A stretch of 64,000 bases of DNA, taken from the NCBI GenBank assembly GCA_963811575.1, contig CAWERY010000015.1, forward strand, positions 8,325 to 72,324. The letters run 5' to 3'. The DNA is from an uncultured Solibacteraceae bacterium (lineage in GTDB: Bacteria; Acidobacteriota; Terriglobia; Bryobacterales; Bryobacteraceae). Shown in pieces: positions 28,732-44,070 of the stretch. The stretch's first letter is position 1. The number at the start of each line of letters is the position of its first letter. Made by a program: the position numbers and the translations under genes. The notes under the pieces were generated by a model, which saw only the letters and a program-made list of their open reading frames with translations, was not told the origin of the DNA and searched no databases.

Positions 28732-30036
28732 TTAAGTAGCCTCACGCGACAGGGGTAGCAGTGTGGGCTTGACCGGTTGGCCGTCCGGTAGAGTACGCAA
28801 CGAAATTCCAGCAACTTCGAGAGATGGTGACGCGCCTCCCACGTCCAAGTGGACACGTGCGTTGGCGTCGTCGCTGGTGGGTGTGAATTCCAACTCGAAA
28901 TCCCTCCATTCCGTGATCAGTGCGATGGATTGGTACAGGCCTAGTCCGGTCCAGGGCGCATGGGCCGCGGCGAAGCCGACGTCAATTGTCCGAGGCTCGT
29001 CGGCGCGGGCGCGAAAGCTCACAGCGTATCGCTGTCCGGCTGTCACCGGGTGATACGGCAGGTTGATTTGTATCTGGGACTCGGCCCCGGCGCCTAGCTC
29101 GTCGATTGCGAGGCGAATCGAATTGGGAAGGCCGGACGCAAGCAGTCGCGCGTGGTTTCCTTCGTCCAACCGGAGTTGAATCCTCGCGTCCTCAACGGCA
29201 CGGCATAGCAAGTTCCAAACCGCGGGATCGGTGATGTTTCGAAGGCGCAAATAGGTCGCAAACCAGTTGAGAAAGTATCCGCGAACGGCGTTGTAGTCCC
29301 CCCTCTCCGCGCTGGCCGCATCACAGGAATCAGCGTGAATCCGGTACTTGTCCCATTGTTCGCCGCACACGAAAACGGCCGTGTGAAGATAGATCTTCAC
29401 CAGGAAAGCCTGGTCGTCGTAGAGCTGGAGAATACCCCGAAAATGTTCCTCGAAGCCGCCGACCATGTCGACGACATGACGGCGCACCAGGAAATCGGAA
29501 GGCGGCGGTGTGGTCGCGGGACCGAGCGGATATAGTTTCGAAAGAAGGGACGGCGGATCGAATAAGGTATCCGCCGGGATGCCTGGATCCGGCACGTGGT
29601 CTCGGGTGGCATCCTCCGGGTCTCCCGTCCAGCTATACCAGTAAAGGCTGGCTCCGTAGATCATCCCCGCTTCCGGGTAGCTCTTCATCAAGGCGACCTG
29701 CCGTTCCAATTTGTACGGCAGCCAAACGTCGTCCGAATCTAGGAAAGCCACCAATTGCCCCCGCCCATGCCTAATGCCAAGATTGCGTGACGCGGACATG
29801 CCCCGGTTGCAGTGGGACTCGTGCTCCAGGTAAGCGATGCGCCCAGAAAAGCGGGAAGCATAGGACTGTGCGATTTGGGTACTGGAATCGGAGGAGCCGT
29901 CGTCTACCAGCATCAATTCCCAAGAATCGAAGGTCTGGTTGATGATGCTCTCAATTGCTTCCCGAATGTATTTTTCCCCATTCAGAAAAATCATCACGAC
30001 GGAAACAAGCGGTTCCGCCACGGGCTGGGGCGGCAT
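28732..30036 (-). CDS. family-2 glycosyltransferase with C-terminal CenC/CBM4_9-like beta-sandwich module
   Basis: GT2 motifs VSVVMIFLNGEKY, LVDDGSSD, FLDSDD. The C-terminal 115 aa (28792-29139) are paralogous to modules in three neighbouring genes. Confidence 0.85.
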   Translation of the reverse strand: MPPQPVAEPLVSVVMIFLNGEKYIREAIESIINQTFDSWELMLVDDGSSDSSTQIAQSYASRFSGRIAYLEHESHCNRGMSASRNLGIRHGRGQLVAFLDSDDVWLPYKLERQVALMKSYPEAGMIYGASLYWYSWTGDPEDATRDHVPDPGIPADTLFDPPSLLSKLYPLGPATTPPPSDFLVRRHVVDMVGGFEEHFRGILQLYDDQAFLVKIYLHTAVFVCGEQWDKYRIHADSCDAASAERGDYNAVRGYFLNWFATYLRLRNITDPAVWNLLCRAVEDARIQLRLDEGNHARLLASGLPNSIRLAIDELGAGAESQIQINLPYHPVTAGQRYAVSFRARADEPRTIDVGFAAAHAPWTGLGLYQSIALITEWRDFELEFTPTSDDANARVHLDVGGASPSLEVAGISLRTLPDGQPVKPTLLPLSREAT

Positions 30037-30038
30037 TG

Positions 30039-31514
30039 CTATATCTCCCGTTCACGGGCATCCGGATGGAGGACGACTGCGGACACCTCTACGGAAGTGG
30101 AATCGCCTCCGGCATCGAAATGGATGCGTGCGTCACCATCACTCGCAGTGGGCACCAGCGGAATGCGAAAGGTGCGCCATTCGGAGTCGATGTCGACTAC
30201 AGAATACAAGCCGAGTCCGCACCACGGTTCATGAGCTTGGGCAAACCCGACCGCGAACTTTCGGGGAGCATCCGCGCGGGCCCGAAAAGAAATGTCGTGA
30301 GCGCATCCCGATATGACGGCGAATCCGGGAAGGTTCAGTTGAATATCATAGGCGGTTGAAGTCTGCAGAGCATCGATCTGGATCCGCACGTGATCCGGAC
30401 TTCCGTCTGGAAATCGCAGGTAGGCCACATTACCTCCGGCGACTCGCAGGTCCCACTTGCCGCGGATCAAAACCGGCCTGCCCCCGCCATGGTTTGACGG
30501 CGCCCACGCGGCGGATTCTCGCGAGCCCTCAAGCCACCCCTGCAAGTGCGCGTAGAATTCATCCCTACCCCAGTTACACACCTGTGCCCGGGGAAGCTGA
30601 AAGCGGTCTGCGTCGCGATCGACCGGGCCAGCGACAGTGGCGCAGGCGCACTGAAAACCGCAGCGGCGAACCAACTCCACAGAATCAGCGTTGTTCGCGC
30701 CGTATGGGTAGGCGAAGCTCAACACCGGGCGGTGCAACTCCGCCTCGAGCCGCTCCTTGCAAACCGCGATTTCTGACAGTTGCTGTTCCACACTCAGCTC
30801 GGGCAGCGCGGGATGCGTGACCGTGTGCGCTCCGATTTCGATGAGTTCTCCTGCCGCCAGTTCGGTCAGCTCCGCGGTCGAGAGTCCGCGGTAATCCTCG
30901 CGAGAACGGGCGGAGAGGTTCGCCCATGCATAGAGGGAATCGAGAATCTGAAGGCGTTCCGCGTCGGGCAGCAACTGTAGCAGGCGCCAGAGAGAGGCGT
31001 AAAGAAAATGCCTGGCCGTAGGCGGCTCTTCGTCCGCCTTCCAGGATTGGTAACTTTGCGAGTCGGCAACGGTGTATTCCTGCGCTTCCGTTAGCTCCCA
31101 ACGATGGCTATTACCCTTGATGGAAAGAGAGAGCTCGGGGGGAAGTGGGCCCGGCTCAAGAAAGATCCGGCCCAACGCGTCCCACCAGAGTTCACGCTTC
31201 GAGCCCAGAAATCCGGTGGTTACGAACACCGTGGCAGGAATGCCGTGGCGTTGGAGCAAGGGCTTCGCGGCAAGCAGGTTGCTGGCATAACCGTCATCGA
31301 ACGTGATCGCGACCGAACGCGGCTGCAGTTCGCGAGCGATGACGGCGCGATTGAGCTGCTGCAAGGACAAAGGGTGCGCGTGCTCTTTCAGTACCTCGAG
31401 ATGCGCAGCGAAGTTCGCGGGAGAGACGCTCGACGAAAATGGGTCAGGGCGCCCTTCGCAGACGTGGTGATACATGAGGATCAGGCCTGCCGGAGCCGCG
31501 GCGTTCGCGCTCAC
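30039..31514 (-). CDS. polysaccharide deacetylase (NodB/CE4-like) with C-terminal CenC/CBM4_9-like module
   Basis: NodB-type motifs ITFDDGY and GAHTVTHP...L. C-terminal YDIQLN...FRARADAPR...GFAQAHEPWCGLGLY...EWRTF...DARIHFDAGG (30066-30455). Confidence 0.8.
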   Translation of the reverse strand: MSANAAAPAGLILMYHHVCEGRPDPFSSSVSPANFAAHLEVLKEHAHPLSLQQLNRAVIARELQPRSVAITFDDGYASNLLAAKPLLQRHGIPATVFVTTGFLGSKRELWWDALGRIFLEPGPLPPELSLSIKGNSHRWELTEAQEYTVADSQSYQSWKADEEPPTARHFLYASLWRLLQLLPDAERLQILDSLYAWANLSARSREDYRGLSTAELTELAAGELIEIGAHTVTHPALPELSVEQQLSEIAVCKERLEAELHRPVLSFAYPYGANNADSVELVRRCGFQCACATVAGPVDRDADRFQLPRAQVCNWGRDEFYAHLQGWLEGSRESAAWAPSNHGGGRPVLIRGKWDLRVAGGNVAYLRFPDGSPDHVRIQIDALQTSTAYDIQLNLPGFAVISGCAHDISFRARADAPRKFAVGFAQAHEPWCGLGLYSVVDIDSEWRTFRIPLVPTASDGDARIHFDAGGDSTSVEVSAVVLHPDAREREI

Positions 31515-33466
31515 AAAGCAGCTTTCTGTGCGCGCAGGCCGATGGTTACCTCGTACCCGCGCTCAGCGAAGTCCAGCTCTTCACGCGTCAACTCGCCGGC
31601 GGAGATTCCGTACAGAAACGAGGCCGCGGAGAGCACGTTTCCGTAGGCATCGATACGGATATTCTCCGGTGCGAACGCTTCCTCGAACAGGCGCCTGCCG
31701 GATAACGGTGTGAAGCTCCAGTACCAGTTGTCGCACCAATCTCGATCGTTGTTCTGGCTGATCCCTGGAAAAGTAGTGAGCACCACGCCGCCGGGCTTGA
31801 GGATTCGGTACAGGGTTCGGATCACGGCGCGAAGATCATAGATGAGCTGTAAGGTCTGAGTGAGTACGATGCAATCGAAGGTGCCGTCCGGAATATGGGG
31901 AGCGTCGGTGAGGTCGCCCACGATCGTCGCCAGCGGATTGCCTTCGACAACGTGCAGGACGTCGCTCCGCGTAACGCGGCTGCCGCCGAATCTTCGCGAG
32001 TAGGTGCTGTCTTCGATTTCCATGACGCGTCCGCGTATGTCCGCCGCCTGGCGAGCCAGATAATTCTCGATGTAATAGCGGTCAATCGGCAGGCCCCGAT
32101 CATATCCCCACATCCGGCTTATCGGAGTAACGCGCCGCAGAGTTCCGAACTGCAAACTGCCGGGCGCGGGGGTGCCGTCGGCGGCCCGTAAGGTGACGTC
32201 CGCCAGTTCGACCGCGGCAGCGTCGCCTGCCAGATCGAAGTGAATGCGGGCGTTCTCGTCGTCGGCAGTTGCGGTAAATTCTTCGTCAAAGGTCTGCCAG
32301 TCCGGCCCAAGCGAGATGCTTCGATAGAGGCCAAGTCCATCCCAGGGTTCGTGGGCCATTGCGACACCAAGATACGCCAGCCTGGAGCTGTCGGCGCGCG
32401 CCTCGAAGGTCACCCGGTAGGGATGGTTGGCAAGCACGCGGAGCCGCGGTTGATTGAGTTGTATGTCGTAACTGGAGCGACTCTCGTTGTTCTGAATGGC
32501 TACCCGGATCGCTCCCGGTTTTCCGGAGAGACTGGTCAAGCGCGCCATGTTCGGGGGCGCGACACGGAACAGCCAGCCGTCGAAATGCGTGACCTCCTGC
32601 GGTGCACTGCGTGTTTCGAACGCCTTGTGCAGGGCAGCGCGGACCGCGGGGTCGTGATTTCCCCGATCATTCAGATGTCGCTCGAGCCACTTCAGGAAGC
32701 GGGAGCGGACGGCATCGTACTGCCCTGTCTCAGTCCCTACCGAAAGACACGACTCGGGATGAATGCGGTATTTGTCCCAGCACTCGCTGGAGACAAAAAT
32801 GTGCCCTTGCAGATAGACCTTGGCCAGAAAAGCCTGATCTTCGTACAAACCGCGGAACTCCTCCTCAAACCACATCGACTCTTTCAGCGATTCCCTCCGA
32901 ACGAGGAGATTTGACATGGAGGGAGCGGTCGCCTGGCCAAGCGGATACAGCTTGAGAAGTAACTCAGGCGGGGCGTAGAGGGTTTCCGTTTTGACTCCGG
33001 GATCGGGAATGAAGTCACGCTGGAGATCTTCGGGTTTGCCGGTCCAACTGTACCAATACCGGCTCAAACCAAAGATCATAGCGGCCTGGGGCTGGGCCTC
33101 CATGATTTCGATCTGGCTGCGAAGGCGATGGGGCATCCATACATCATCGGCGTCAGAAAGGCCAATATGCGAGGGCACGCGCGACTCCAGCACTCCGGGA
33201 TGCCGGAATTCCGCGGTTGCTGTGCCCCTCATGTTCCAGGTATCGCGCTCGGGCGGGATTCTGGCTGACCGACTTTTGTGCGATCGCGGTACTCGAATCG
33301 GAGGAGCCGTCGTCTACAAAGAGTAGCTCCCAGTTCGAGTAGGACTGCGCCAGCACACTCGCCACAGCCTCTTCCATGTAAGTCTCGGCATTAAAGAAGG
33401 GCATTACGATCGAGACTAATGGTGTTCCGGATGAGATCGGATTCAGAGGCTTTCCGCTGCCGGCAT
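31511..33466 (-). pseudogene. tri-domain GT2 / CBM-like module / class I SAM-methyltransferase, one clear frame break (~33172) and one tentative (33445-33463)
   Basis: N-terminus PLVSIVMPFFNAETY...LFVDDGSSD...NRGIPASRSAGVARA shifts to HIGLSDADDVW. CBM-like module at 32183-32575. C-terminal methyltransferase (VMEIED...FDCIVLTQTLQLIYD...LKPGGVVL) at 31514-32152. The ATG overlaps the wzt stop (TAATG). Confidence 0.7.
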
Positions 33467-34231
33467 TAAACGGTCGCGTGGCTCCATGTCTGGACGTCCG
33501 CGTCCGCCAGGTATTGGGGGATGACGATTCGGGTAGGGCCGTAGGCGGCAACACGCCCGCCGCGCAGCCACAAGGCGTCTTCACATAAAGATTCCACCAT
33601 GCCCGCATCGTGGGTAACGAGGACAATCGTGCAGCCTCCCGCCTTGAGCTGCCGGATGCGATCCAGGCACTTGTGTTGAAAGGCCACGTCGCCGACCGCC
33701 AGGACCTCGTCAATCAGCAGGATATCCGGCGCGGAATGAATGGCGATGGAGAAGGCCAGGCGCATCTGCATGCCCGATGAGTAACATCGCAAGGGGCTAT
33801 CGATGAAATCATGAAGCTCCGAAAATTCGACGATGGCATCGAAGCGTTCCCGGACTTCCTTCTTCGTGAGTCCGCCCACTACGCCGTTTACGAGGACGTT
33901 CTCGCGGCCTGACAATTCGGGGTGAAAGCCGGCTCCGAGATTGAGCAGCGCGCCGATCCGGCCTTCGATTTCGATCACGACCTTCATCGGGCCGGCCGAC
34001 ACCGCCGATCAGGCGCAGCAGAGTGGATTTGCCCGCTCCATTTCGCCCGATGACGCCGACGGTCCTGCCGGCGGGAATTCGCAGGTTCACTTCGCGCAAG
34101 CCCCAGAACTGTTCCGCCGGCAGCAGTTTTCGAAAACCGCGAAGCAGCGCTTCGTGAATCGTGCCGGGCGTGTCGGTATGATAGCGGCGGTACTTCTTGC
34201 CTACGTCTTTAATGAAAATTGGAATTCCCAC
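33466..34231 (-). pseudogene. wzt: polysaccharide/O-antigen-type ABC exporter ATP-binding protein (short form, no C-terminal binding domain), frame broken once (~33980)
   Basis: GTG start overlaps the wzm stop (TAGTG). Walker A GRNGAGKSTLL, then a shift, then GRIGALLNLGAGFHPELSGRENV, signature SSGMQMRLAFS, Walker B ILLIDE. About 254 aa once restored. Confidence 0.85.
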
Positions 34232-35022
34232 TACAGTTCCTCCACAAAGCGATGCCGTGCCAGATTGAATGCGGTGCAACCCAGCGTCAGTACAACCACC
34301 GAGAGGCCGGCGACACCCAAGAGCGGAATAGGGTCGGGCCACGTCCCGCGCATCAGAACGGCGCGGTATCCATCGAGGATCATGGCCACCGGGTTCATGA
34401 GCATGATCGAGTGATAGGGCTCCGGGATCGTGCTGACATCCCAGAAGACGGGGGTCAGATAGAAGAATAGAAAGAGACCGATGCCGAGAAGATACTGAGT
34501 ATCGCGAAATCTTACTTGCAGCGTGGCGACGATATAGGCCAGGCTCGTAACAAATAGAAACTGGACGAGGATGATCAGGGGTAGTGCAGCCAGAGACGGA
34601 TTCAGCCGGTAGCCATCCCTGACCAGAAACACGGCCAGAATGGGAAGGGCCAGCAGGAAGTGCACCAGGTGGGAAAGCACCGTGATCACCGGCAGAAGCG
34701 GAAGCGGGAAGCCGACTTGTTTCACCAGGTCCCGGTTATCGACGACGGTCATGGCGGAAACCAGCAGCGATGCCTGGAGCCAGGTCCACGGCAGGATTCC
34801 GGTAAACAGGAAGGTCGTGTAGTGGGGAATGTTCAAGGGTACGATGCCGTTGAATACCACGTACAGCACCAGCAGCTGCGCCAACGGTACCAGGAGGGAC
34901 CATGCGATTCCGAGAAGCGAGCGTTTGTAGCGCAGTTTGAAATCGCGAGCGACTAGTATACGCACCAGATCATACTTATGCCGCCAGCTATTCGACTGAT
35001 TCCGAACTTGATATCGATTCAC
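34231..35022 (-). CDS. wzm: ABC-2 type polysaccharide export permease
   Basis: 263 aa with six predicted TM segments. N-terminal RDFKLRYKRSLLGIAWSLL motif typical of Wzm/TagG permeases. Confidence 0.85.
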   Translation of the reverse strand: MNRYQVRNQSNSWRHKYDLVRILVARDFKLRYKRSLLGIAWSLLVPLAQLLVLYVVFNGIVPLNIPHYTTFLFTGILPWTWLQASLLVSAMTVVDNRDLVKQVGFPLPLLPVITVLSHLVHFLLALPILAVFLVRDGYRLNPSLAALPLIILVQFLFVTSLAYIVATLQVRFRDTQYLLGIGLFLFFYLTPVFWDVSTIPEPYHSIMLMNPVAMILDGYRAVLMRGTWPDPIPLLGVAGLSVVVLTLGCTAFNLARHRFVEEL

Positions 35023-35032
35023 CTTAATCCCC

Positions 35033-36463
35033 TCATCCTGCCATTTGCCAAACCCCTATTTTTCGCCGGGTCAATAACCGGATTCGTTCATGAAAGCGTT
35101 TTTCGCAGACAGAAACATCGAAGGACCGGCGAATTTTTTCAGCGGCGGCCCGGCCCATGCGTTGCCGTAAACCAGCGTCGTTCCGTAAACTCGAGATCGC
35201 TGCCGCCAGCGATTTTGCATCGCGCTGCGGAACGATTAGACCGTCCTGCCCGTGATCCACGACTTCGACGATGGAGCCGGCATCGGTAGCGACCGCCGGC
35301 AGGCCGGTTGCCATGGCCTCCAGGAGCGCGGTGGGAATTCCATCCTTGTCGCCGCTTTCGGTTTCGACGAAGGGCGCAATGAACAGGTGCGCCTGCTGCA
35401 GGAACTGCTGAATCTCCGCACTCGAACGCCGGCCTTCCAGATGGAACGCGTTTCCGATTCCGAGTTCGAGAATTTTCTGGTCGAGCGCACGGGCGTACTC
35501 GCGGCTGGGTTCGTTGTCGTCCACGCCGCCGAGTATGTGCGCCGAAACCGGGACGCCCGAATCGATCAGGTGGCGGACGGCTTCGGCCAGGTAGAGCAAG
35601 CCCTTTTTGGGCTCGATGCGGCTGACGCAGACCAGGCGAAACGGAGTGCCTTCGGCCGGCGCGCTACGGAGGGTTGCGGGAAAGCGCCTGGAATCGATCG
35701 CGTTCGGTTTGACGAGAATGCGGTCGGGGTCCACCGCCGGGGCGATTGCCATGAGCTCCCGTTTAATCCGGTTCGAAGTCGCGATTACCAGGCCGCACTG
35801 CCGGATGTGGAGTGCTACGACTTTCAGGGCGTAATCGTCCAGCATGTGGTCGGCATAGCAGCTCACGCCGCGCGGGATATCGAGGAGATACGACGCGAAC
35901 AGCGTGAACAGCGCGCCTTCGTAGAAGAAGTAGGAGTGCAGGTAGTCCGGCCGGCAGGCTTCCACGGTTCGTGTGAAGGCAAATGCCTGTTTGAAGTGAT
36001 AGTGGTTTTGAAGTTCCTCGGGCGTTATGCCGGATGCTTCACAGACCATTGCGACCAGGCTGCGAACCTTTTCCGGCATGCGTTCGCAATAGTAGGCATA
36101 GTCGCGCTCGGACACGCTGTAGTGTAAGAACAGTTTGCGCTTGGAATGCCAGACCCGTGAGAATTGCCGGGGCAGAAAGCTTCGCGGATTCAATTTGGAA
36201 TAGAGGAAGCGCAAGCGGAAGCCGCCGCGTACGAGCTCCGAAAGTTCCTGGTAGACAAAGGTCTGGGAGTAGATGGGAAACTCCCAGCAGGCGGTGGAAG
36301 CTACGCGAACGCCGCTGCCGAAGGCTGGAATCCAGCGTTCCACCGAAGGCGGAAGCGCTGAAACCGGTGAAGGCGGTGCGCCGCGGTTTCCTCGTCGGCG
36401 CCCAGCGGAAAACCTGCCGGCGGGCCATCTGGCCTGGAGTTGTTGAAGCATCTCTTCAATCAC
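35033..36463 (-). CDS. family-4 (GT-B) glycosyltransferase
   Basis: C-terminal EPKKG...GDKDGIPTALLEAMATGLPAVATDAGS motif (E-x7-E region). GTG start overlaps the upstream stop (GTGA). A later start (GTG, ~aa 41) is possible. Confidence 0.8.
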   Translation of the reverse strand: MIEEMLQQLQARWPAGRFSAGRRRGNRGAPPSPVSALPPSVERWIPAFGSGVRVASTACWEFPIYSQTFVYQELSELVRGGFRLRFLYSKLNPRSFLPRQFSRVWHSKRKLFLHYSVSERDYAYYCERMPEKVRSLVAMVCEASGITPEELQNHYHFKQAFAFTRTVEACRPDYLHSYFFYEGALFTLFASYLLDIPRGVSCYADHMLDDYALKVVALHIRQCGLVIATSNRIKRELMAIAPAVDPDRILVKPNAIDSRRFPATLRSAPAEGTPFRLVCVSRIEPKKGLLYLAEAVRHLIDSGVPVSAHILGGVDDNEPSREYARALDQKILELGIGNAFHLEGRRSSAEIQQFLQQAHLFIAPFVETESGDKDGIPTALLEAMATGLPAVATDAGSIVEVVDHGQDGLIVPQRDAKSLAAAISSLRNDAGLRQRMGRAAAEKIRRSFDVSVCEKRFHERIRLLTRRKIGVWQMAG

Positions 36464-38854
36464 CCAGGCCGCCCGTCATTGGCCGCGCCGTCGGTCGCGG
36501 CGCCCGCCTGGATCACTTCCGGGGCCTGCTCGACCGCTCGAAGCACGACCGAGGTCAGATCGACTCCAAGCGCCCGGCCTCCCAGATCGAAGTGAATGCG
36601 GGCGTCTTCGTCATCTTCCAAAGCGACGAACTCCTCCTCAAAAGTCTGCCATTCCGCGGTCAGACGGACCGTGGTATACATGCCCAGGGTTGTCCAGGGA
36701 TCGTGGGCCTTGGCGAAGCCCACGCCAATCTCGCGGGGCCGTTTGGCCCGCGCCCGAAAGGCCACCGTATATCGAACTCCGCCGGCCACCTTGAGGCCGA
36801 GGCGGTTCAGTTGAATGTCCCAATTGGTTTTGGTTTCCGCTTTGGTGATGCCGATTTTGACCATCTCGTGGTCTTCACGCGGATAGATCAGGCTTGCCTG
36901 GTTGCGGTCACCGACGCGGAGGTGCCAGCGGCCTTCGAGCGCGGGATCGGCGAGAGTGTCCGCGCCGAGTGCGGGCTCCGGTGCGGCCGACAGTTCCGTG
37001 GTGGCGGGTTCGGGTTCGCGGCGCTTCGTGACGCGCAGCCACGAACCGAGCCGCATCCAGGTATCGTGTTGCAGGTCTTCGATCAGCAGCGCGCGTACGG
37101 TTGCAGCTTCGCGCCACTTGGACAGTTCGCCCGAAACGTATTCGACCTGCTGCTCCAATTCCTGAGCCCGTCCTCGCACGGCGTTCAGTTCCAGGCCGAA
37201 TGAGTTGCCATAGCTGTTCGAGTTCGCGAATGCGGGTGCGAGCGCCGGTGAGTGCCACTCCAACGCCTGTTCCGTGCTGCTCGAGCTGGTGAATGCGGGC
37301 GCGCGCGCCGGTGAGTTCCAGGGCTAACGCCTGTTCGTGCTGCTCAAGTTCTTGGATGCGTGCCTGCCCGCCGGCCAAATTGAGATCCATTAAAATTACG
37401 CGCTGCTCCAAACCTAAAATTGTGCGGCCGGCGCCGGCCAATTCCTCGATGGCCGTTGCGCGGCTGCGCTCGAGATGTTCGCTGTGCTGCATGGCAGTCT
37501 GCAGTTGCGCCGTTAGGGCGGCTGTCCGTGTTTCGAATTCATGTAGTTCCCGCTGCGATTGTTCTTTCGCCAAGGCCAGCTCTGCTACCTGCCCGCTCGA
37601 GGCTTGCAGTTCAGCGCGAAGTTTGGCGGTCTCGGCCGCCAGTTCCGCGTTACGCCGTTCCCACTCCTGGGTGGAGGCACGCCACGAATCCCGGTCTGCC
37701 GTCAGCGAGGCAGAGCCTTCGGTGATTCGCGCGATGGTTTCCTGCAAGGCGGCGGCGGACGCCTCCTCATGATCCATCACATCGGCCCAAACCGGCGAGT
37801 TCCTAAGGATCAGCTTTTTCAACTCTCTCAGGGAGTTCTCAGCCAAGTGGGCAGTTTGCGTGTGCAATTCAAGCGCCTTCAGAAAGTCGGCCGCCGGCTC
37901 ACTGATGCGTCGCCAAAGGTCTTCCCAATCCTGCCGCGCAAGACACTCAGGGAGCGGGGCCGCGTCGAAAATGCATTGTGCGATGGCATTCGGATAGAGG
38001 CCGGTATACTGCTCACCGCCAACCAATTGCAGTAGCCGCGCGAGCATCCTTTCCGGCGCCAAGTAATAGACCTGCGCACCAGGAAAGTAAGTAGTACTGC
38101 TGGCTCTCTACGGTCGAGCCGGTAAGGCCATTCGCATACTGCGGCAAGGGATTACGGACTCTCGGGTCTGGTCCGTGGCCCCGACGCAGTACGGTAAGTC
38201 CGTCGCGAAGCATTTGTTCCGCGTCCAGCGAGGCGGAATGCGGCATCATTCGATAGTACGCAAGTACCTCCGGAACGGCGCCAAAGGTGGCGCCGCAGCG
38301 AGCAATTCTCTGCCAGAGGTCCCAATCGGGAGACTTTCTGAGACTGATATCGAATGATCCGGCTGCCTCTACCATCGACCGCCGGACCAGGCAGGCGTGT
38401 ACCGGGAAGGCGGCGCGGCGGGCCAGGACCGGGAACAGATCGCCGGTTGGCGGCCTATATTCTTCAATGAGTTCCGCTCCATTTTGCGCTACCCGGGCCC
38501 AACCGCAGTGCACGGCGTCCAGCGATGGATCCGCGTCAATCGCGGATGTGAGCCGTTCCAAATAGCATGGCGAAACCCAGTCATCGGCATCCAGAAAGAG
38601 AAGCCACTCAAAGCGAGCGTGGGAAATGCCGGTATTCCGTGCGGCGCTTTCTCCTCCGTTTGGCTGGGAGACGACGCGTATCCGGACATCGCGCTCCGCC
38701 AAAGCCTCCGCGATAGCGCGGGTAGCATCGTGCGACCCGTCATCCACGATCACGATTTCCCAGTCCGTTGCGCGATTGATTCTCAATCGACGAGACTGCG
38801 GTCCATCAACGTGGTAGCGGCGTTGTAGGCGGGGATGATAACACTTACTTTCAC
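36460..38854 (-). pseudogene. GT2 glycosyltransferase / long coiled coil with 21-aa repeats / C-terminal CBM-like module, three frame breaks
   Basis: GTG 38854 with GAGG 9 nt upstream. KVSVIIPAYNAATTL, break at ~38786, then DWEIVIVDDGS...LDADD. Break at ~38038 into a helical region. Break at ~37196 inside the repeat array. CBM-like module at 36538-36927 (WDIQLN...FRARAKRPR...GFAKAHDPW...DARIHFDLGG). Confidence 0.7.
37149..37464. repeat. five tandem 63-bp units (21 aa, 3 heptads) inside the coiled-coil coding region
   Basis: GCTGCTC(C/G/A)A... recurs at 37149, 37213, 37276, 37339 and 37402. The spacing is 63 bp, except 64 bp for the first unit, which holds the frame break. Protein units follow L.L(T/A/N)G(A/G)(R/Q).RI..LEQ(H/L/Q). 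Confidence 0.8.
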
Positions 38855-39361
38855 GGAAAATTGCCTCGTACAACTCTGATGGCTATCAAAATGGGACGAT
38901 TCGGAAGGGGCACTCCAATGATCGGACTGCCATGCCGGTTAGCCATTAAAGGTTCCGAAATCTCCCATCGCATTCTTGTCGAAAAGTTCGCATTGCTGCC
39001 CATTTTTATTCCAACCCTCACAGATATCCGAGGTGCCCCATCGTAAATCGCTTGAGCCGGTGAACGTGCAGCTCTCATGTTCCCAACGTGCTTCAGTCAG
39101 GGAACGCTCCCAAGCGATGATGTGGTACCCGATTAAAGGCACTTGCCTTGCCAATCATTTCCCGAGGAGAAGAATCGGGCTTGGCGCGATGCCGTAACCT
39201 TTCTTGACGGCGTGGCGCCGAGTTAGTCGCGAGCCTCGCCGCTGCCGGACTGGCATTGTTCGATGCCTTTATTCCTGGCAGTGAAACTGCTAACCCGCTA
39301 CTTAAGGCAAATCCGCCGCAACTGGTGTTACCCGGCAGCGCGGCACAAACACGCAACCTCA
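38855..39361. promoter_or_regulatory. divergent intergenic control region between the two arms of the glycan locus
   Basis: About 500 bp between a minus-strand GT2 start (38854) and a plus-strand GT4 start (39362). Visibly more AT-rich than the flanks. No specific promoter boxes could be assigned with confidence. Confidence 0.4.
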
Positions 39362-41392
39362 ATGACGCACCTATTCATCTGTCGGGAGTATCCGCCAGCT
39401 CCTTATCCACCGGGGGGCATTGGCACCTACGTCAGGCACATCTGCCGTTTGCTTGCCGAATCCGGCGACAGAGTTCATGTCATCGCACAACGTTGGGAAG
39501 GCGCTTCGGCTCCGTTAACGGTATCGGATGATGGCAAGTTAGTTGTGCATCGCGTCTCACCCAATGATTCGGCGGCCGAGATGGCTCAGGATGCCGGTCA
39601 CAACTCGTTGATTATCGACAGCTTGACGAAAGGAGACTGCCCCTCTCAGGCTTTCAGCTGGCAGGTAGCGGGCCTGGTAGAGCAACTGGTTATATCCGAA
39701 GGCATTGATGTAATCGAGGCGCCCGAATGGGAGGCACCCCTTTACTTTTACCAACTTCGACGATCTTTAGGGATGGGGCCGGCCAAGCAGCCGCCTTGCC
39801 TAATCCACTTACATTCGCCCTCTGAGCTCATCTTTCGACATAACCAGTGGGATGTGACCCTCTCCGACTATGCGCCTCTCCGGCAGTGCGAACGGTATTG
39901 CATCCAGAACGCCGATGCACTGCTCAGCCCGAGCCGCTATTTGGCCCGCGAAGCTGAGGAGCTTTTCGGACTGGCGGCCGGTCAGGTCCTGGTAATCCCA
40001 TATCCTTTGGGAGATAGTTGCGGGATCGAGCGTCCGGCGGCCGTGTGGCGGCGCGATTCGGTTTGTTTCACAGGGCGTCTCGAGCTGCGAAAAGGCGTCG
40101 TGGAATGGGTGGACGCGGCGGTAAAGGTCGCGCAGACACATCCCACGGTTAGTTTTGACTTTATCGGGAGCGACACCTCCCTGGATGGCGGCCCTGGCGC
40201 TTCGGTCCGCCGTTTTCTTTGGGACCGAATCCCTGCCGGGTTGCGGCCGCGATTTCATTTCCACGGCAGCATGAGCCGGGAGAAGTTGAGGAAGGCTTTG
40301 GCGGGCACTCCGATCGCCGTGGTGCCTTCGCGTTGGGAGAATCTTCCGTATAGTTGCATTGAAGCGATGAGCTCCGGGCTGCCGGTGCTGGTTTCGCCCC
40401 ACGGCGGCATGCGCGAACTGATCGGGCATGGCGAAAGCGGTTGGATCGCGGCCGATGCAACTGCCGCAGCCTTGGCCGCGGCATTACGTACCGCGCTTGA
40501 GACACCCCCTGCACGACGAGCGAAGATGGGCCAAAACGCAGCCGCGGCCGTCAGCCGGCACTGCTCGAACCAGACTGTGGTGAAGCGCCATCTGGAATTG
40601 CGGCGCCGGTTAACCGAACCGATGACGGACAGGCCGGCGGCGATGGCGGGAATTCCCACGGAGGCCCGGCGCGGCATGGCCGTGGTGGTGACTTGCGGGG
40701 ACCGAATCGGTCTGCTGCCACAGTGTTTGGAGCATCTTGCGCGGCAAACGGAGTCTGCGGCCCGCGTAGTGGTGATCGGAAGCTCCAAGGCCTTGGAATG
40801 GTGCCGCGCGTCAGGAGCCGGCTTCGTGGATGAGCAAACGCCATCGTCACGCGAAGCCGCGCTGCAGCAGGTCTTCGACGCCGCACCGCACGTCGCCGGC
40901 GTGGTGTTGGTGGATGCGGGTGTTCAGTTGGAACCGCACTGTCTGGCCGCATTCGCAGCGGTTCTGCAACGCCGGCCGGACGCCGGAATGGTCGCGGGTT
41001 TCAGCCGCTACGCAGGGCAGACTGCTGATTTGAATGTGACGCCGAACTTCGATTTGCAATCGCTCGAAGCCACCGGCGAGTGCTTCTGCCTGGCGGTGCG
41101 GACCGAAGCGCTGCAAGACCGTCATACCGCCGGTACGGGGTGGGCCACCGTAACGTATCCCGAAGTTCTGGTCTTGGCGCCAGCCCGCAAACCATCCGGC
41201 GGTGCCGCCAAAAAACGCTATTCGGCCATGGCACTGGCGCAGCGCACGTCTTCGAAACTGATGTGGACCTGGTTCCTTGGCGCCCCCGTCGCGGAAAAAG
41301 TGAGATGGGTGGGACGGGCTCTGTTCCAGCCTCGCCGTGCCGCTCAGTGGGTGAGCTGGCAAGTTCGTACCGCATCGACGAGGACCCGTTGA
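39362..41392 (+). CDS. bifunctional glycosyltransferase: N-terminal GT4 (GT-B) plus C-terminal GT2-like domain
   Basis: MTHLFICREYPPAPYPPGGIGTYV N-terminus, with ...VVPSRWENLPYSCIEAMSSGLPVLVSPHGG. The C-terminal ~270 aa (MAVVVTCGDR...VVLVDAGV) resemble a degenerate GT-A fold. Confidence 0.75.
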   Translation: MTHLFICREYPPAPYPPGGIGTYVRHICRLLAESGDRVHVIAQRWEGASAPLTVSDDGKLVVHRVSPNDSAAEMAQDAGHNSLIIDSLTKGDCPSQAFSWQVAGLVEQLVISEGIDVIEAPEWEAPLYFYQLRRSLGMGPAKQPPCLIHLHSPSELIFRHNQWDVTLSDYAPLRQCERYCIQNADALLSPSRYLAREAEELFGLAAGQVLVIPYPLGDSCGIERPAAVWRRDSVCFTGRLELRKGVVEWVDAAVKVAQTHPTVSFDFIGSDTSLDGGPGASVRRFLWDRIPAGLRPRFHFHGSMSREKLRKALAGTPIAVVPSRWENLPYSCIEAMSSGLPVLVSPHGGMRELIGHGESGWIAADATAAALAAALRTALETPPARRAKMGQNAAAAVSRHCSNQTVVKRHLELRRRLTEPMTDRPAAMAGIPTEARRGMAVVVTCGDRIGLLPQCLEHLARQTESAARVVVIGSSKALEWCRASGAGFVDEQTPSSREAALQQVFDAAPHVAGVVLVDAGVQLEPHCLAAFAAVLQRRPDAGMVAGFSRYAGQTADLNVTPNFDLQSLEATGECFCLAVRTEALQDRHTAGTGWATVTYPEVLVLAPARKPSGGAAKKRYSAMALAQRTSSKLMWTWFLGAPVAEKVRWVGRALFQPRRAAQWVSWQVRTASTRTR

Positions 41393-44070
41393 GTTCACGC
41401 GTAACGGCAGGGGACGAGAGGCCGCTGGTTTCGGTTGTCCTCCCTGTCTATAACGGCGAGCGCTTCGTCGCCCAGACGATTGAATCCGCGCTCCGCCAGA
41501 CCTATCGGAACCTCGAAATCATCGTAGTGGACGATGGATCGACCGATCAGACCGCATCGCTGATCCAGAGTATTGCGGCGCGCGACCCGCGGGTTCGAAT
41601 CTTTCACCAACCCAACAGCGGCGTAGCGCGGGCCAGAAATCGCGGGCTGGAAGAATCACGCGGCGAGTTTGTGGCGCCGTTGGACTCCGACGATCTCTGG
41701 GATCCCGCCAAGATCGAAGAGCAGGTCCGGATCATGCAGCAAGGCGGCGACGCGATTGGCCTGGTCTACTGCTGGTGGGTTTGGATCGATGAGAAGGGCG
41801 TGATTCTGGACCGGTCGCCTTCGTGGGAAATCGAAGGGGATGCCGGTGACCTGCTGCTGCAGGTGAACTATACGGGTAACGCGAGCGTACCGTTGTACCG
41901 GCGCAAGTATCTGCAGGAGGTCGGCGGATACGACGAGAGCATGGAGCAGCGAGACGGCCGGGGATGCGAGGATTGGGACGTCGCGTTAAGAATCGCCGCG
42001 CGGTACCCGGTCGCGGTCGCACGCCAACTGCTGGTGGGCTACCGGCGCTTGCCGGATAGCATGTCCACGCACTGCGATGAGATGTGGCGGTCGCGGCAGT
42101 TGTTGATCAGCGGGGCAGTGGAGCGAGATCCGGATTTAGATCCGCAATTACTTCGGCGTTCCACCGATCAGTTCGCGCTATACGTGGCCGGAGTACTGTT
42201 CCGATCGGGCGCGTATGTACGATCGTTCGGCTGGGCGGCGCGGGCCTGGCGGACGGGCCTCATCTTCCGCGTTTTGCCTTACGGGTTTCGCGCACTGGCC
42301 AACGGCGCATTGTCTCGCCGTTCGCTTTCCAAGCAAGTGATGACGGCGGGAGCCGGACTGGACAGCAGCGCCATTCCCGCAGCTCTGATTCCCTACGACC
42401 GCTTGTATCCGGCGCAAGCCGAAGCCGGCCCGGTTCGGAGTTCCGGCGTGCTGCAGTCCAAGATCGTGCAGTTCTTATTCGTAATTCTGACCTTTCTTTT
42501 CGTGGCGGGACTGCACCGGGATGACGATGGTTTGGCGTTTCAGGGGGACGCGCCCCGGCATGCGATCAATGGCCTGTTCTGGTATGACATGGCTACCAGC
42601 GGCACCACGGACTTCATCGGTTTTGCGACGCGTTATTACGCGCGTTATCCGGTGATCAATCCCATCACCTACCCGCCGCTTTTCTACCTGCTGGAAGGCT
42701 GCGCGTTTCGGATTTTCGGGCCTACGCCCTACGCGGCCAAAGCGCTGATTTTGCTGTTCGGGATTTTGGCGGGTTGCTACAGCATGGCGTGGGCGAGGCG
42801 CTGGGTAGGACCGGTTTACGGCTGGACGGGGGTCTTTCTCGCCCTCTTGCCCGGCGTTGTTGTGTGGTCGACCACGGTGATGTTGAACGTGCCGGCCCTG
42901 GCCCTGGGGATGGCGAGCCTCTACCACGCGCGGCGCTGGGTGGAATCCGGCGGCGGCAGGCGAGCGGTAGTGTGCGGCGCCCTCTGTGCGGCCACTCTGT
43001 TCACCTACTATCAAGGCGGCATCGCGATTGCGATTGGCCTTGTGTGGACGCTGTTTTTACGATCAAGCCGCAACCGCTCCCGGCAGGCCCTGGCAATTGC
43101 CGGGGTAGCATTACTTGCCGCGATACCGGTGCTGCTGGCGGCCGCATTTGCCCCGATGTTCCTGCAGCGCAATGTGCCGAGCCTGGCGAAGTTGATGGGA
43201 GCAGAAACCTTCACCTTTTACCTATCCAGTTTGCCGGCGTTGGTGGGTGCGGCGCCCTTAGCGCTCGGTACGCTCGGGATTGTGCTCGGGATACGCAGTG
43301 CTGTGTGGAGGAAGGAAGCCCAACTGGTCGCGCTGTGGATCCTCATACCACTGACGGCATTCTCCCTTTTGCCTGCGAAAGACTCGCGCTACGTGCTGAT
43401 TGTTGCCCCGGCCTTCTTAGTGGGAGCGGCGATCGGGATCGCCTCCCTGGCCGCGCAATACCGGGCTGTCTGGCAATCCGCAGTCTGGCAATCCACTGTC
43501 TGGCAATCCACGGTCTTAATCGCGATGCTCGCGTTGGGCGCCTGGAGTGCATCGCGAGTTCCCACACTGCACAAATCCGGCTTCCGCGCGGTGGCGTTGT
43601 ACCTGCAGCAGCACGCTCCGGACGAAGCCGTTCTCTACGACGGATACCATGACGGGCTTTTCGGATTCTATCTGCGCGCATCGGATCCGGGTTTCAAGCG
43701 CAGGCTTGTGTTGGGGCAGCAGGTGCTTTATCGTTTCGGACCAGCCACGACCTTCGACTGGGTGGAGACTGTGAACGCCGATTCACGAGCGGCGGTGGTC
43801 CGGTCGCTGCAGATGGAATCGGGCTGCCGGTGGCTGGCAATTGAAGTGGGAGCCAATTCGGAATGGGCGCGAGGGCAGCGTCTGTTGCGAGATGCAGTGA
43901 GAGGGCCGGAGTTCGAACTGGTGCGGACTTTTCCCGTGATCGCGCCGAATGCGACCCGCGTGGATCTGTACCGCCAGGTGGGAGCGGTGGCGCCGAAATC
44001 CACAATCGATCTGAAAATGACTTCGCTCGGCGAACACATTTTTCGCGGTGTTCAACCGATAACCAGATAG
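41389..44070 (+). CDS. fusion of GT2 glycosyltransferase with ArnT/PMT-like (GT-C) polytopic membrane glycosyltransferase domain
   Basis: TTG start overlaps the previous stop (TTGA); an upstream ATG is less likely. GT2 motifs VSVVLPVYNGERF, VVDDGSTD, LDSDD. Then at least 9 hydrophobic segments with a YPPLFY-type loop, as in GT-C enzymes. Confidence 0.75.
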   Translation: MSSRVTAGDERPLVSVVLPVYNGERFVAQTIESALRQTYRNLEIIVVDDGSTDQTASLIQSIAARDPRVRIFHQPNSGVARARNRGLEESRGEFVAPLDSDDLWDPAKIEEQVRIMQQGGDAIGLVYCWWVWIDEKGVILDRSPSWEIEGDAGDLLLQVNYTGNASVPLYRRKYLQEVGGYDESMEQRDGRGCEDWDVALRIAARYPVAVARQLLVGYRRLPDSMSTHCDEMWRSRQLLISGAVERDPDLDPQLLRRSTDQFALYVAGVLFRSGAYVRSFGWAARAWRTGLIFRVLPYGFRALANGALSRRSLSKQVMTAGAGLDSSAIPAALIPYDRLYPAQAEAGPVRSSGVLQSKIVQFLFVILTFLFVAGLHRDDDGLAFQGDAPRHAINGLFWYDMATSGTTDFIGFATRYYARYPVINPITYPPLFYLLEGCAFRIFGPTPYAAKALILLFGILAGCYSMAWARRWVGPVYGWTGVFLALLPGVVVWSTTVMLNVPALALGMASLYHARRWVESGGGRRAVVCGALCAATLFTYYQGGIAIAIGLVWTLFLRSSRNRSRQALAIAGVALLAAIPVLLAAAFAPMFLQRNVPSLAKLMGAETFTFYLSSLPALVGAAPLALGTLGIVLGIRSAVWRKEAQLVALWILIPLTAFSLLPAKDSRYVLIVAPAFLVGAAIGIASLAAQYRAVWQSAVWQSTVWQSTVLIAMLALGAWSASRVPTLHKSGFRAVALYLQQHAPDEAVLYDGYHDGLFGFYLRASDPGFKRRLVLGQQVLYRFGPATTFDWVETVNADSRAAVVRSLQMESGCRWLAIEVGANSEWARGQRLLRDAVRGPEFELVRTFPVIAPNATRVDLYRQVGAVAPKSTIDLKMTSLGEHIFRGVQPITR
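43468..43515. repeat. in-frame 15-bp tandem repeat x3.2 (GTCTGGCAATCCNCN) encoding VWQS(A/T)
   Basis: gtctggcaatccgca / gtctggcaatccact / gtctggcaatccacg / gtc. Lies within the membrane domain of the GT2-GT-C fusion. Confidence 0.9.

Follow-up and report, generated by a model that had tools for sequence, protein, structure and literature searches.

The window, the 64,000-nt stretch of DNA analyzed here, carries a gene that joins an N-terminal GT2 glycosyltransferase to a C-terminal CBM4-like module through a long stalk containing five tandem 21-aa units. This gene is part of a polysaccharide locus of the Wzm/Wzt (ABC-transporter-dependent) type in a Bryobacteraceae-like soil acidobacterium. 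With moderate confidence, we interpret the intervening region of this predicted cytoplasmic protein as a coiled-coil stalk whose length changes in heptad steps, which would make it a candidate spacer or ruler, and the frame breaks that interrupt the gene as artefactual. Coordinates are collected in Table 1.

Table 1. Features of the stalk gene and neighboring genes in the window
Feature	Position	Strand	Description
Whole stalk gene	36460..38854	minus	GT2, helical bundle, coiled-coil stalk, linker and CBM4-like module; several frames in the assembly
GT2 catalytic domain	38226..38854	minus	PF00535; GT-A fold; contains LFLDADDW
Alpha-helical bundle	37802..38110	minus	Separates GT2 from stalk; P0001 residues ~248-350; reading frame broken once, near 38040
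Predicted coiled-coil stalk	37072..37786	minus	Equivalent to P0001 residues 356-593; ~34 heptads; ~35 nm if continuous
Five tandem 21-aa (63-bp) units	37126..37441	minus	Inside the stalk; unit 4 (37189-37252) is 64 nt in the assembly
Units in protein register	37441-37379, 37378-37316, 37315-37253, 37252-37189 (64 nt), 37188-37126	minus	
Conserved post-repeat segment	37015..37125	minus	LSKWRE...DTWMRLGSWLRVTKRRE; ~35 aa; length fixed across homologues
Pro/Ala/Glu-rich linker	36931..37014	minus	Low model confidence; pLDDT <50 at residues 603-639
CBM4_9-like beta-sandwich	36532..36930	minus	PF02018
GT4 gene	35033..36463	minus	PF00534 and PF13692; start overlaps stalk-gene stop
Wzm (ABC-2 permease) and short Wzt	33466..35022	minus	PF01061, PF00005; Wzt frame-broken in the window
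GT2-CBM-methyltransferase gene	31511-33713		Methyltransferase here, not on the stalk protein

Domain order and locus context

The stalk gene begins with VKVSVIIPAYN at 38854 and is covered in the window by ORFs 38013-38873, 36908-38062 and 36460-37263. An intact ortholog of 796 aa (P0001), 92% identical to the window gene at the protein level, is carried on contig L004. The N-terminal domain matches PF00535 (E 1.2e-26 for the window ORF, 8.2e-36 for P0001), its LFLDADDW stretch supplies the DxD motif, and Foldseek and phmmer both matched it to GT2 structures (6p61, 5hea, 2z86). When the whole model was submitted to Foldseek, this domain dominated the matches and the stalk yielded no information. 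The adjoining bundle extends from H248-265 to H336-350 in the AF2 model of the ortholog and is invariant in length, W355 occupying an identical position in 8 of 12 homologues.

Beyond the stalk, the conserved segment is marked by E575, L576, R586, W598 and G602, all invariant in alignment A2; 11 of 12 homologues keep a spacing of 23 aa between E575 and W598, P0016 having 34 aa. This segment may serve for docking or act as a weakly amphipathic element. The possibility that it anchors the protein to the membrane as an amphipathic helix finds little support, the hydrophobic moment being only moderate (~0.35). Between W598 and the CBM lie 31-48 aa, with 7 of 12 homologues at 44 aa. The C-terminal module exceeds the PF02018 cut-off (31.1 bits vs 25.9), retrieves the T. 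maritima Lam16A CBM4 (1GUI) with phmmer at E 6.6e-13, and is modeled as ten strands within residues 642-772, consistent in both profile and fold with a CBM_4_9 module. The repeats lie between the GT2 (PF00535) and this module (PF02018), as the initial annotation had placed them. The ~330-aa helical segment described there holds for the bundle (~248-350) and the coil (~356-593), which are helical; residues ~604-641 instead form a Pro/Ala-rich linker of low confidence.

The separate GT4 encoded next to the stalk gene is 54% identical over 422 aa (E 7e-151) to the C-terminal part of P0049 and 44% identical to the C-terminal domain of P0041, each a GT2-coil-GT4 protein. Some relatives have the counterpart of the window's neighboring GT4 attached C-terminally to the same GT2 and stalk. 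The intact L004 genes encode Wzm and Wzt proteins of 217 and 254 aa, Wzt consisting of the nucleotide-binding domain only: PF00005 was the sole transporter domain found, and a cap-binding C-terminal domain was absent. Four CBM-bearing enzymes are encoded in the locus, which is syntenic in L029 at 45% aa identity. A family-level search of 151 genomes recovered the extended architecture in only ~2 others. Metagenome contigs searched with P0001 returned distant GT2 relatives and zero close orthologs, and a search of genome contigs with alignment A2 settled on generic GT2 motifs and returned 80 unrelated GT2 loci of many phyla, a result uninformative on architecture.

A length-variable stalk between fixed flanks

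Among 18 homologues, the stalk spans 97-354 aa between flanks of fixed length. Its length modulo 7 equals 3 in nine of them (binomial 3.5e-4; 0.0025 corrected for 7 classes), the other nine lying outside this main class. Within the family, it is thus the stalk that varies in length, preferentially by whole heptads, while the flanking domains remain fixed in size; a whole-heptad change preserves the relative phase of the stalk's two ends. Homologues contain internal repeats of 7, 14, 21, 28 and 42 aa, among them an 84-bp repeat in L029 whose 3.5 copies are 97% identical. The stalk grows and shrinks as multiples of the heptad are duplicated in tandem, in phase, or are lost; these repeats are old 21-aa units in the window's lineage and young 28-aa units in another.

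The poorly conserved stalk sequence (alignment A2), its wide range of lengths and the half of the homologues outside the main modulo-7 class also fit a different explanation, which we consider possible but rather doubtful: the coil would serve oligomerization or scaffolding only (a GT2 dimer or trimer, CBM avidity or GT4 docking), and its length would have no measuring role and would drift neutrally in a rod under low constraint. In agreement with this, Pfam and PDB searches with P0001 found only GT2 and CBM4_9 on the stalk protein, with no chain-terminating kinase, methyltransferase, GT99 or GT137 domain, and the heptad regions of Helicobacter pylori FucT have also been called dimerization domains (PMC2583950). 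A stalk of 14-53 nm, however, far exceeds the needs of oligomerization. The strict size of the flanks and the enrichment of phase-keeping whole-heptad changes likewise argue against a rod with no measuring role, as does the placement of the rod in GT2-coil-GT4 fusions, where it parts two catalytic modules as in WbbB.

Frame breaks and the repeat array

Indels between the window and L004 were located from their BLAST alignment. Relative to the intact ortholog, uncompensated indels occur at ~38806/38775/38769, 38040, 37214, 33980 and near 33160; the window has one base more than L004 at ~38040 (bundle), at ~33980 (Wzt) and at ~37214, the last being the break that had been noted inside the array and is present in the sequence. 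The array also holds two compensated +1/-1 pairs, at 37292/37289 and 37273/37258. All breaks fall within divergent patches, and dN/dS in these patches is 0.00-0.20. Because the ortholog contig is intact at 98.3% DNA identity to the window, dN/dS is low, and dnaE and uvrA are also frame-split elsewhere in the assembly, the frame breaks of the window, including that of the array, are most likely indel errors of the long-read consensus and not biology, a practical warning for reading this long-read assembly.

Were the breaks genuine, the stalk gene, wzt and the GT2-CBM-methyltransferase gene would be recent pseudogenes and the array a relic. Several uncompensated indels against an intact ortholog, the position of indels outside homopolymers and the lack of a match in the one other genome of the genus searched could be read in this way. 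The same genes, however, are under strong purifying selection, with 21 synonymous and 0 non-synonymous substitutions vs L004 in Wzt and a dN/dS of 0.20 in the stalk gene, and the essential or conserved dnaE and uvrA are likewise split across frames. Completeness of the assembly (8.6 Mb, 20 contigs) is just 89.8%, and L005 ('np1212'), a long-read contig related to this one, shows fragmentation of the same kind. Pseudogenization is therefore improbable. Programmed frameshifting was dropped, since many unrelated genes are broken and the ortholog is in frame.

Periodicity of the array is evident in the DNA, where autocorrelation over 37149-37464 peaks at lag 63 (0.486 vs ~0.37-0.40 at other lags) and a repeat search found a 45-nt core four times, at 37149, 37213, 37276 and 37339, with spacings of 64, 63 and 63 nt and identities of 60-84%. 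Because TRF finds just 2.1-2.6 copies (79-83% identity), likeness at the DNA level is clear only for the middle units. At the protein level all five are homologous, sharing 5-13 of 21 residues pairwise against a background of 2.2 +/- 1.6 (99th percentile 7) among other 21-aa segments from the helical region of the intact ortholog. Both lag-63 autocorrelation and protein homology bear out the five consecutive 63-bp units of the initial annotation, whose coordinates describe the array in a 23-nt-shifted phase. In order, the units read LAGAGRTILGLEQRVILMDLN, LAGGQARIQELEQHEQALALE, LTGARARIHQLEQH..., LTGARTRIRELEQ...GNSFGLE and LNAVRGRAQELEQQVEYVSGE. Each consists of three heptads, with L, A, I, L, (E/H) and L at the a/d positions.

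A single heptad register is the best one from P0001 residue ~358 to ~595 in nearly every 21-aa interval, the exception being that at 449, which marginally prefers another (1.4 vs 1.3). Between the flanks, 220 aa contain zero Pro and 12 Gly, one or two per unit, a frequency unusual for rigid coiled coils. The AF2 monomer model, a check proposed with the original observation, is helical throughout the array: H356-401 is followed, after a low-confidence loop (402-420), by one 173-residue helix (H421-593) spanning all five units, with moderate stalk confidence (pLDDT 55-71). The continuous a/d pattern and the helical, breaker-poor composition are those of a canonical left-handed coiled coil. On this model, the five units would belong to one uninterrupted canonical coiled-coil stalk of ~34 heptads and ~35 nm, which forms part of the joint interpretation given at the outset.

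The glycines that open each unit (L-x-G-A/G) could instead hinge a series of short helices, or the region could fold as an antiparallel bundle, and physical length would then not scale with residue number. The abundance of Gly, the 402-420 loop of the monomer model and its moderate confidence are compatible with such a structure. The modeled helix nevertheless continues through all five units, glycines included, the a/d register does not shift, and heptad-quantized length changes would be relevant only to a continuous supercoil, which makes hinged helices or an antiparallel bundle a decidedly improbable description.

The comparison of copy number among relatives gave five units in the window, P0001 and P0002, and six in P0003/L005. 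Slipped-strand mispairing at the 63-bp repeats, altering copy number or frame at high frequency within populations as in a contingency locus, is very improbable here: the in-frame tandem organization, the six units of one close relative and the precedent of H. pylori futA/futB would suit it, but the units are only 43-73% identical at the DNA level in L004 (in the window, 60-84% over the 45-nt core), and their longest exact common run is 20 nt. Moreover, the unit number remains five in three of four close relatives (69-92% aa identity), and the extra unit of L005, 86% identical to the copy most like it, has diverged as well and is hence an old event. Tuning of length through slippage, which the initial annotation had envisaged, is unlikely in this lineage for the same reason of unit divergence.

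A candidate spacer and its relation to known rulers

The protein, predicted to be cytoplasmic, runs from the GT2 through the helical bundle, the stalk, the conserved 35-aa segment and a flexible linker to the CBM4-like module. In the arrangement that we propose by analogy with WbdD, WbbB, O7 ORF6, O4 ORF7 and FutA/B, an oligomeric stalk would keep a defined spacing between the GT2 and the C-terminal end, which is associated with glycan binding and with the GT4. Since only chains of a certain length would reach the end distant from the GT2, the stalk could function as a spacer or ruler that governs how long glycan chains become or where a modification is placed; this role is put forward purely by analogy. 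A more specific and distinctly tentative version, which we regard as unlikely, is a ruler that measures by binding and not by catalysis. The stalk would set a CBM4-like glycan reader at a heptad-quantized distance from the GT2, and the four CBM-bearing enzymes of the locus would replace the Wzt binding domain in chain recognition. Length or the position of a terminal modification would then be set where the CBM grasps the nascent chain, with GT2 and stalk interchangeable between a CBM tip and a GT4 tip.

To our knowledge, proven coiled-coil rulers for ABC-transporter-dependent glycans comprise a few enterobacterial proteins only, with a different form in H. pylori. The present family offers a natural series of 97-354-aa stalks with fixed flanks, heptad-quantized steps, some recent expansions, and both CBM-tipped and GT4-tipped versions. 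It makes possible a direct test of whether stalk length determines glycan length outside enterobacteria, and opens a second question, namely whether a CBM can replace a terminator enzyme or a Wzt reader.

Published work calls an extended coiled coil 'a characteristic marker' of ABC-dependent glycan assembly under terminator control; in WbdD and WbbB its function as a ruler is proven (PMC11231755). WbbB (Raoultella terrigena / Klebsiella pneumoniae O12) and K. pneumoniae O7 ORF6 each combine a terminator, a coiled coil and polymerase GTs in a single polypeptide (PMC11231755). The window protein resembles both in its ABC-transporter-dependent locus and in a long coiled coil parting an N-terminal glycan-acting module from C-terminal modules; its relatives P0049 and P0041, as GT2-coil-GT4 fusions, recall WbbB, and O7 ORF6 also has a CBM-like fold. 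It differs from them in that its N-terminal module is an ordinary PF00535 GT2 and not a GT99 Kdo transferase or a methyltransferase-kinase, and in that its GT4 is a separate, overlapping downstream gene while the stalk protein ends in a CBM4-like module. A PDB search with P0001 detected no sequence relationship to either. The window Wzt without a cap-binding domain is a difference from WbbB and WbdD alike.

WbdD (E. coli O9a / K. pneumoniae O3) is a terminating kinase-methyltransferase on a coiled-coil ruler (PMC3482155; Hagelueken 2015 via PMC11231755). Like WbdD, the window protein has a short conserved segment on the C-terminal side of its stalk; its locus also encodes an enzyme that bears a methyltransferase (31511-33713), and stalk length would, by analogy, be a candidate determinant of chain length. 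The methyltransferase, however, resides on the GT2-CBM-MT protein and not on the stalk. WbdD-type rulers have a C-terminal membrane-binding amphipathic helix and a polymerase recruitment site; in the window protein the coil is followed by the conserved 35-aa segment, in which such a helix is not evident (moment 0.35). We know of no recognizable tandem repeats in WbdD rulers.

K. pneumoniae O4 ORF7 (GT137) consists of a terminator GT, a TPR-like helical bundle and a C-terminal coiled coil (PMC11231755), an order of GT, bundle and coil matched by residues 1-593 here. The GT fold differs (the window GT is a GT-A GT2), and ORF7 stops at the coil, whereas the window protein adds a linker and a CBM.

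The alpha1,3/4-fucosyltransferases FutA and FutB of H. pylori carry a heptad-repeat 'enzymatic ruler' (PMC2583950; Nilsson 2006), in which the number of heptads determines how large the glycosylated O-chain is (PMC2583950). They share with the window protein a glycosyltransferase bearing a tandem-repeat heptad stalk and a unit number that differs between relatives, and in H. pylori that number correlates with the size of the modified glycan. GT family and taxon differ. In H. pylori the repeating unit is one heptad (21 bp), and the copies are almost identical and vary within populations; repeats of this near-identical type were not found here (43-73% nt identity in L004), and copy number differs only between more distant relatives. 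Each window unit comprises three heptads, and the units are old and have diverged (43-84% nt identity); any change in their number therefore belongs to an evolutionary time-scale.

Stalk gene, its locus and the frame breaks

A single minus-strand gene accounts for three overlapping ORFs and encodes a GT2 enzyme in which a helical bundle and coiled-coil stalk lead to a CBM4-like module; its neighbourhood is an ABC-transporter-dependent glycan locus (Table).

Features of the stalk gene, its locus and the modelled ortholog
Feature	Position	Strand or source	Remark
Stalk gene	38854-36460	-	GTG start at 38854 (VKVSVIIPAYN); stop at 36460
Stalk-gene ORFs	38013-38873, 36908-38062, 36460-37263	-	
GT2 domain	in stalk-gene ORFs	-	PF00535, E 1.2e-26
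Helical region	in stalk-gene ORFs	-	weak coiled-coil-type Pfam matches only
CBM_4_9 module	in stalk-gene ORFs	-	PF02018, 31.1 bits (cut-off 25.9)
Repeat units 1-5	37441-37126	-	protein register; unit 4 is 64 nt long
GT4 gene	35033-36463	-	start overlaps stalk-gene stop
Wzm gene	34231-35022		neighbour of stalk gene
Short Wzt gene			neighbour of stalk gene; split in two frames
GT2-CBM-methyltransferase gene			neighbour of stalk gene; likewise frame-split
Deacetylase gene			neighbour in locus
GT2-CBM gene			neighbour in locus
GT4, GT2-GT-C, GT4, methyltransferase-TPR genes		opposite to stalk gene	same neighbourhood
GT-A domain	N-terminal to bundle	AlphaFold2	
Helical bundle	residues 248-350	AlphaFold2	
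Helix	residues 356-401	AlphaFold2	
Loop	residues 402-420	AlphaFold2	low confidence
Single uninterrupted helix	residues 421-593	AlphaFold2	spans all five units
Linker	between helix 421-593 and beta-sandwich	AlphaFold2	low confidence
Beta-sandwich	residues 642-772	AlphaFold2	

Three GT2 enzymes of the locus carry the CBM_4_9 module (28732-30036, 31511-33713 and 36460-38854), only one of them with a coiled-coil stalk. The CBM-like module is also matched in 11-19 separate stretches in each of five giant proteins (P0019, P0032, P0033, P0043 and P0048; 1,857-2,994 aa), where these stretches form long tandem arrays. At 41080-44070 (+), a GT-C membrane domain (PMT_2/Alg9-like) is fused to a GT2, and this fusion may have a connection with three-component systems that modify glycans outside the cytoplasm (PMC11127046).

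An intact ortholog, P0001 (796 aa, 92% identical to the stalk protein), is encoded on L004, a 14.1-kb JGI contig with the same gene order and all genes intact. L004 shares 98.3% DNA identity with window 29483-43620, and the 30 indel events between them are confined to two patches of higher divergence, one at about 39120-37100 and one at 35100-33100, with almost identical flanks. Synonymous divergence is about 0.07-0.11 in both patches and the remainder is nearly identical, a mosaic that points to strain recombination or a mixed-strain consensus. The intergenic stretch upstream of the stalk gene (38855-39040) is the richest in indels, with an insertion cluster totalling about 25 nt and five 1-nt deletions. 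Within the gene, indels lie near 38806, 38775 and 38769 and an extra base near 38040; the repeat array holds two compensated pairs (37292/37289 and 37273/37258) and one uncompensated extra base near 37214.

Substitutions relative to L004 look like those of working genes, both in the stalk gene (dN/dS 0.20) and in Wzt (21 synonymous, 0 non-synonymous changes). Elsewhere in the assembly (8.6 Mb, 20 contigs, 89.8% complete), dnaE is split over three frames (C8:124132-127196) and several uvrA copies are frame-split (C2:460587-463275, C17:117042-119841 and C4:233119-235846); rpoB and rpoC are intact. L005, a related contig whose name ('np1212') suggests nanopore data, is fragmented likewise. The assembly thus appears to carry patchy indel errors, which calls for caution over any frame-broken gene in the window. 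The frame breaks are probably consensus indel errors, concentrated at strain-divergent sites. The initial annotation had placed such a break inside the array: the extra base is present, in unit 4, but the intact L004 copy and the split dnaE and uvrA make the break itself a probable artefact.

Coiled-coil stalk and its repeats

Simple a/d scoring of P0001 in 21-aa windows found one heptad register best in nearly every window from about residue 358 to about 595, roughly 34 heptads without stutter; the sole exception, window 449, marginally favoured another register. No proline occurs in the 220-residue stretch that the conserved flanks enclose. AlphaFold2 (monomer, 12-sequence alignment, mean pLDDT 66) predicted a helix across all five units at moderate confidence (pLDDT 55-71), to be read with the periodically recurring glycines and the monomeric model in mind. 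Together, helix, constant register and lack of proline argue for a helical, heptad-regular region rather than a disordered one; the coiled coil proposed earlier is well supported. If continuous, the stalk would measure about 35 nm, each unit contributing about 3.1 nm.

The five tandem 63-bp (21-aa) units initially described were borne out. Autocorrelation of the DNA at 37149-37464 peaked at lag 63, and all five units are related in protein, with pairwise identities of 5-13 of 21 residues (background mean 2.2, 99th percentile 7). Repeat search of the DNA recovered a 45-nt core in four copies (spacing 64, 63 and 63 nt; 60-84% identity), and TRF 2.1-2.6 copies only. Copy number does vary among close relatives: five units are present in the window's gene, in P0001 and in P0002, and six in P0003 (on contig L005, at 88% nt identity), the additional one resembling unit 4. 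The units are nevertheless old: those of L004 are 43-73% identical to one another in nt, with a longest exact run of 20 nt. Tuning by replication slippage, as first suggested, is therefore unlikely as a rapid mechanism here.

Stalk length among homologues

Stalk length ranged from 146 to 354 aa in 12 aligned homologues and from 97 to 354 aa in 18 homologues compared by flank-anchored BLAST. The flanking parts were largely constant in the 12: the post-stalk segment E575-W598 spans 23 aa in 11 of them (34 aa in P0016), the linker measures about 44 aa (W598 to CBM 44 aa in 7, range 31-48), and eight end the N-terminal module at the W355 equivalent. Length modulo 7 equalled 3 in 9 of the 18 (binomial 3.5e-4; 0.0025 after correction for seven classes), which is indicative and no strict test because the sequences are related. 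Homologues have internal repeats of their own, with periods of 7, 14, 21, 28 or 42 aa. The orthologous stalk of a syntenic Bryobacteraceae locus (L029:10294-10583) contains an 84-bp (28-aa, four-heptad) repeat in 3.5 copies at 97% identity. This expansion is recent, and as a substrate for changes in copy number the repeat is far better suited than the array in the window.

Module partners and known ruler systems

The GT2-plus-bundle module (350 aa) occurs widely, matching 2,736 representatives (E <= 1e-30), and has many fusion partners: coil-CBM, coil only, coil-GT4, deacetylase, methyltransferase-deacetylase and a second GT2. Two proteins of the representative library, P0049 and P0041, join the module, a coiled coil and an ortholog of the adjacent GT4 in one polypeptide; their C-terminal domains are 54% (over 422 aa, E 7e-151) and 44% identical to that GT4, respectively. 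By Rosetta-stone reasoning, this suggests that the stalk protein and GT4 act together. As read from their sequences, these fusions place the stalk between two glycan-acting modules, a layout like that of WbbB.

For ABC-dependent assembly under terminator control, an extended coiled coil has been called 'a characteristic marker'; its function as a ruler is proven for WbdD and WbbB, with the terminator always at the distal end (Kelly et al. 2024, PMC11231755). Klebsiella pneumoniae O7 ORF6 is methyltransferase-kinase-CBM-coil-GT2-GT2 and O4 ORF7 is GT-helical bundle-coil (PMC11231755), while in Helicobacter pylori FutA/FutB the tandem heptad number correlates with fucosylated O-chain size (PMC2583950). 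The stalk protein resembles these systems in layout but belongs to none of their families, and its units, unlike the FutA/FutB type, are not near-identical. Searches of P0001 found no terminator domain, GT99 or GT137, a membrane-binding helix was not evident on the stalk protein, and Wzt (254 aa in the intact L004 copy) lacks a binding domain, PF00005 being the only transporter domain found. By analogy, a role of the stalk as a ruler for glycan length is plausible, and the length differences within the family form a natural series on which ruler function could be tested beyond enterobacteria. GT2-stalk-CBM4 with a short Wzt is a new architectural variant of the known principle.
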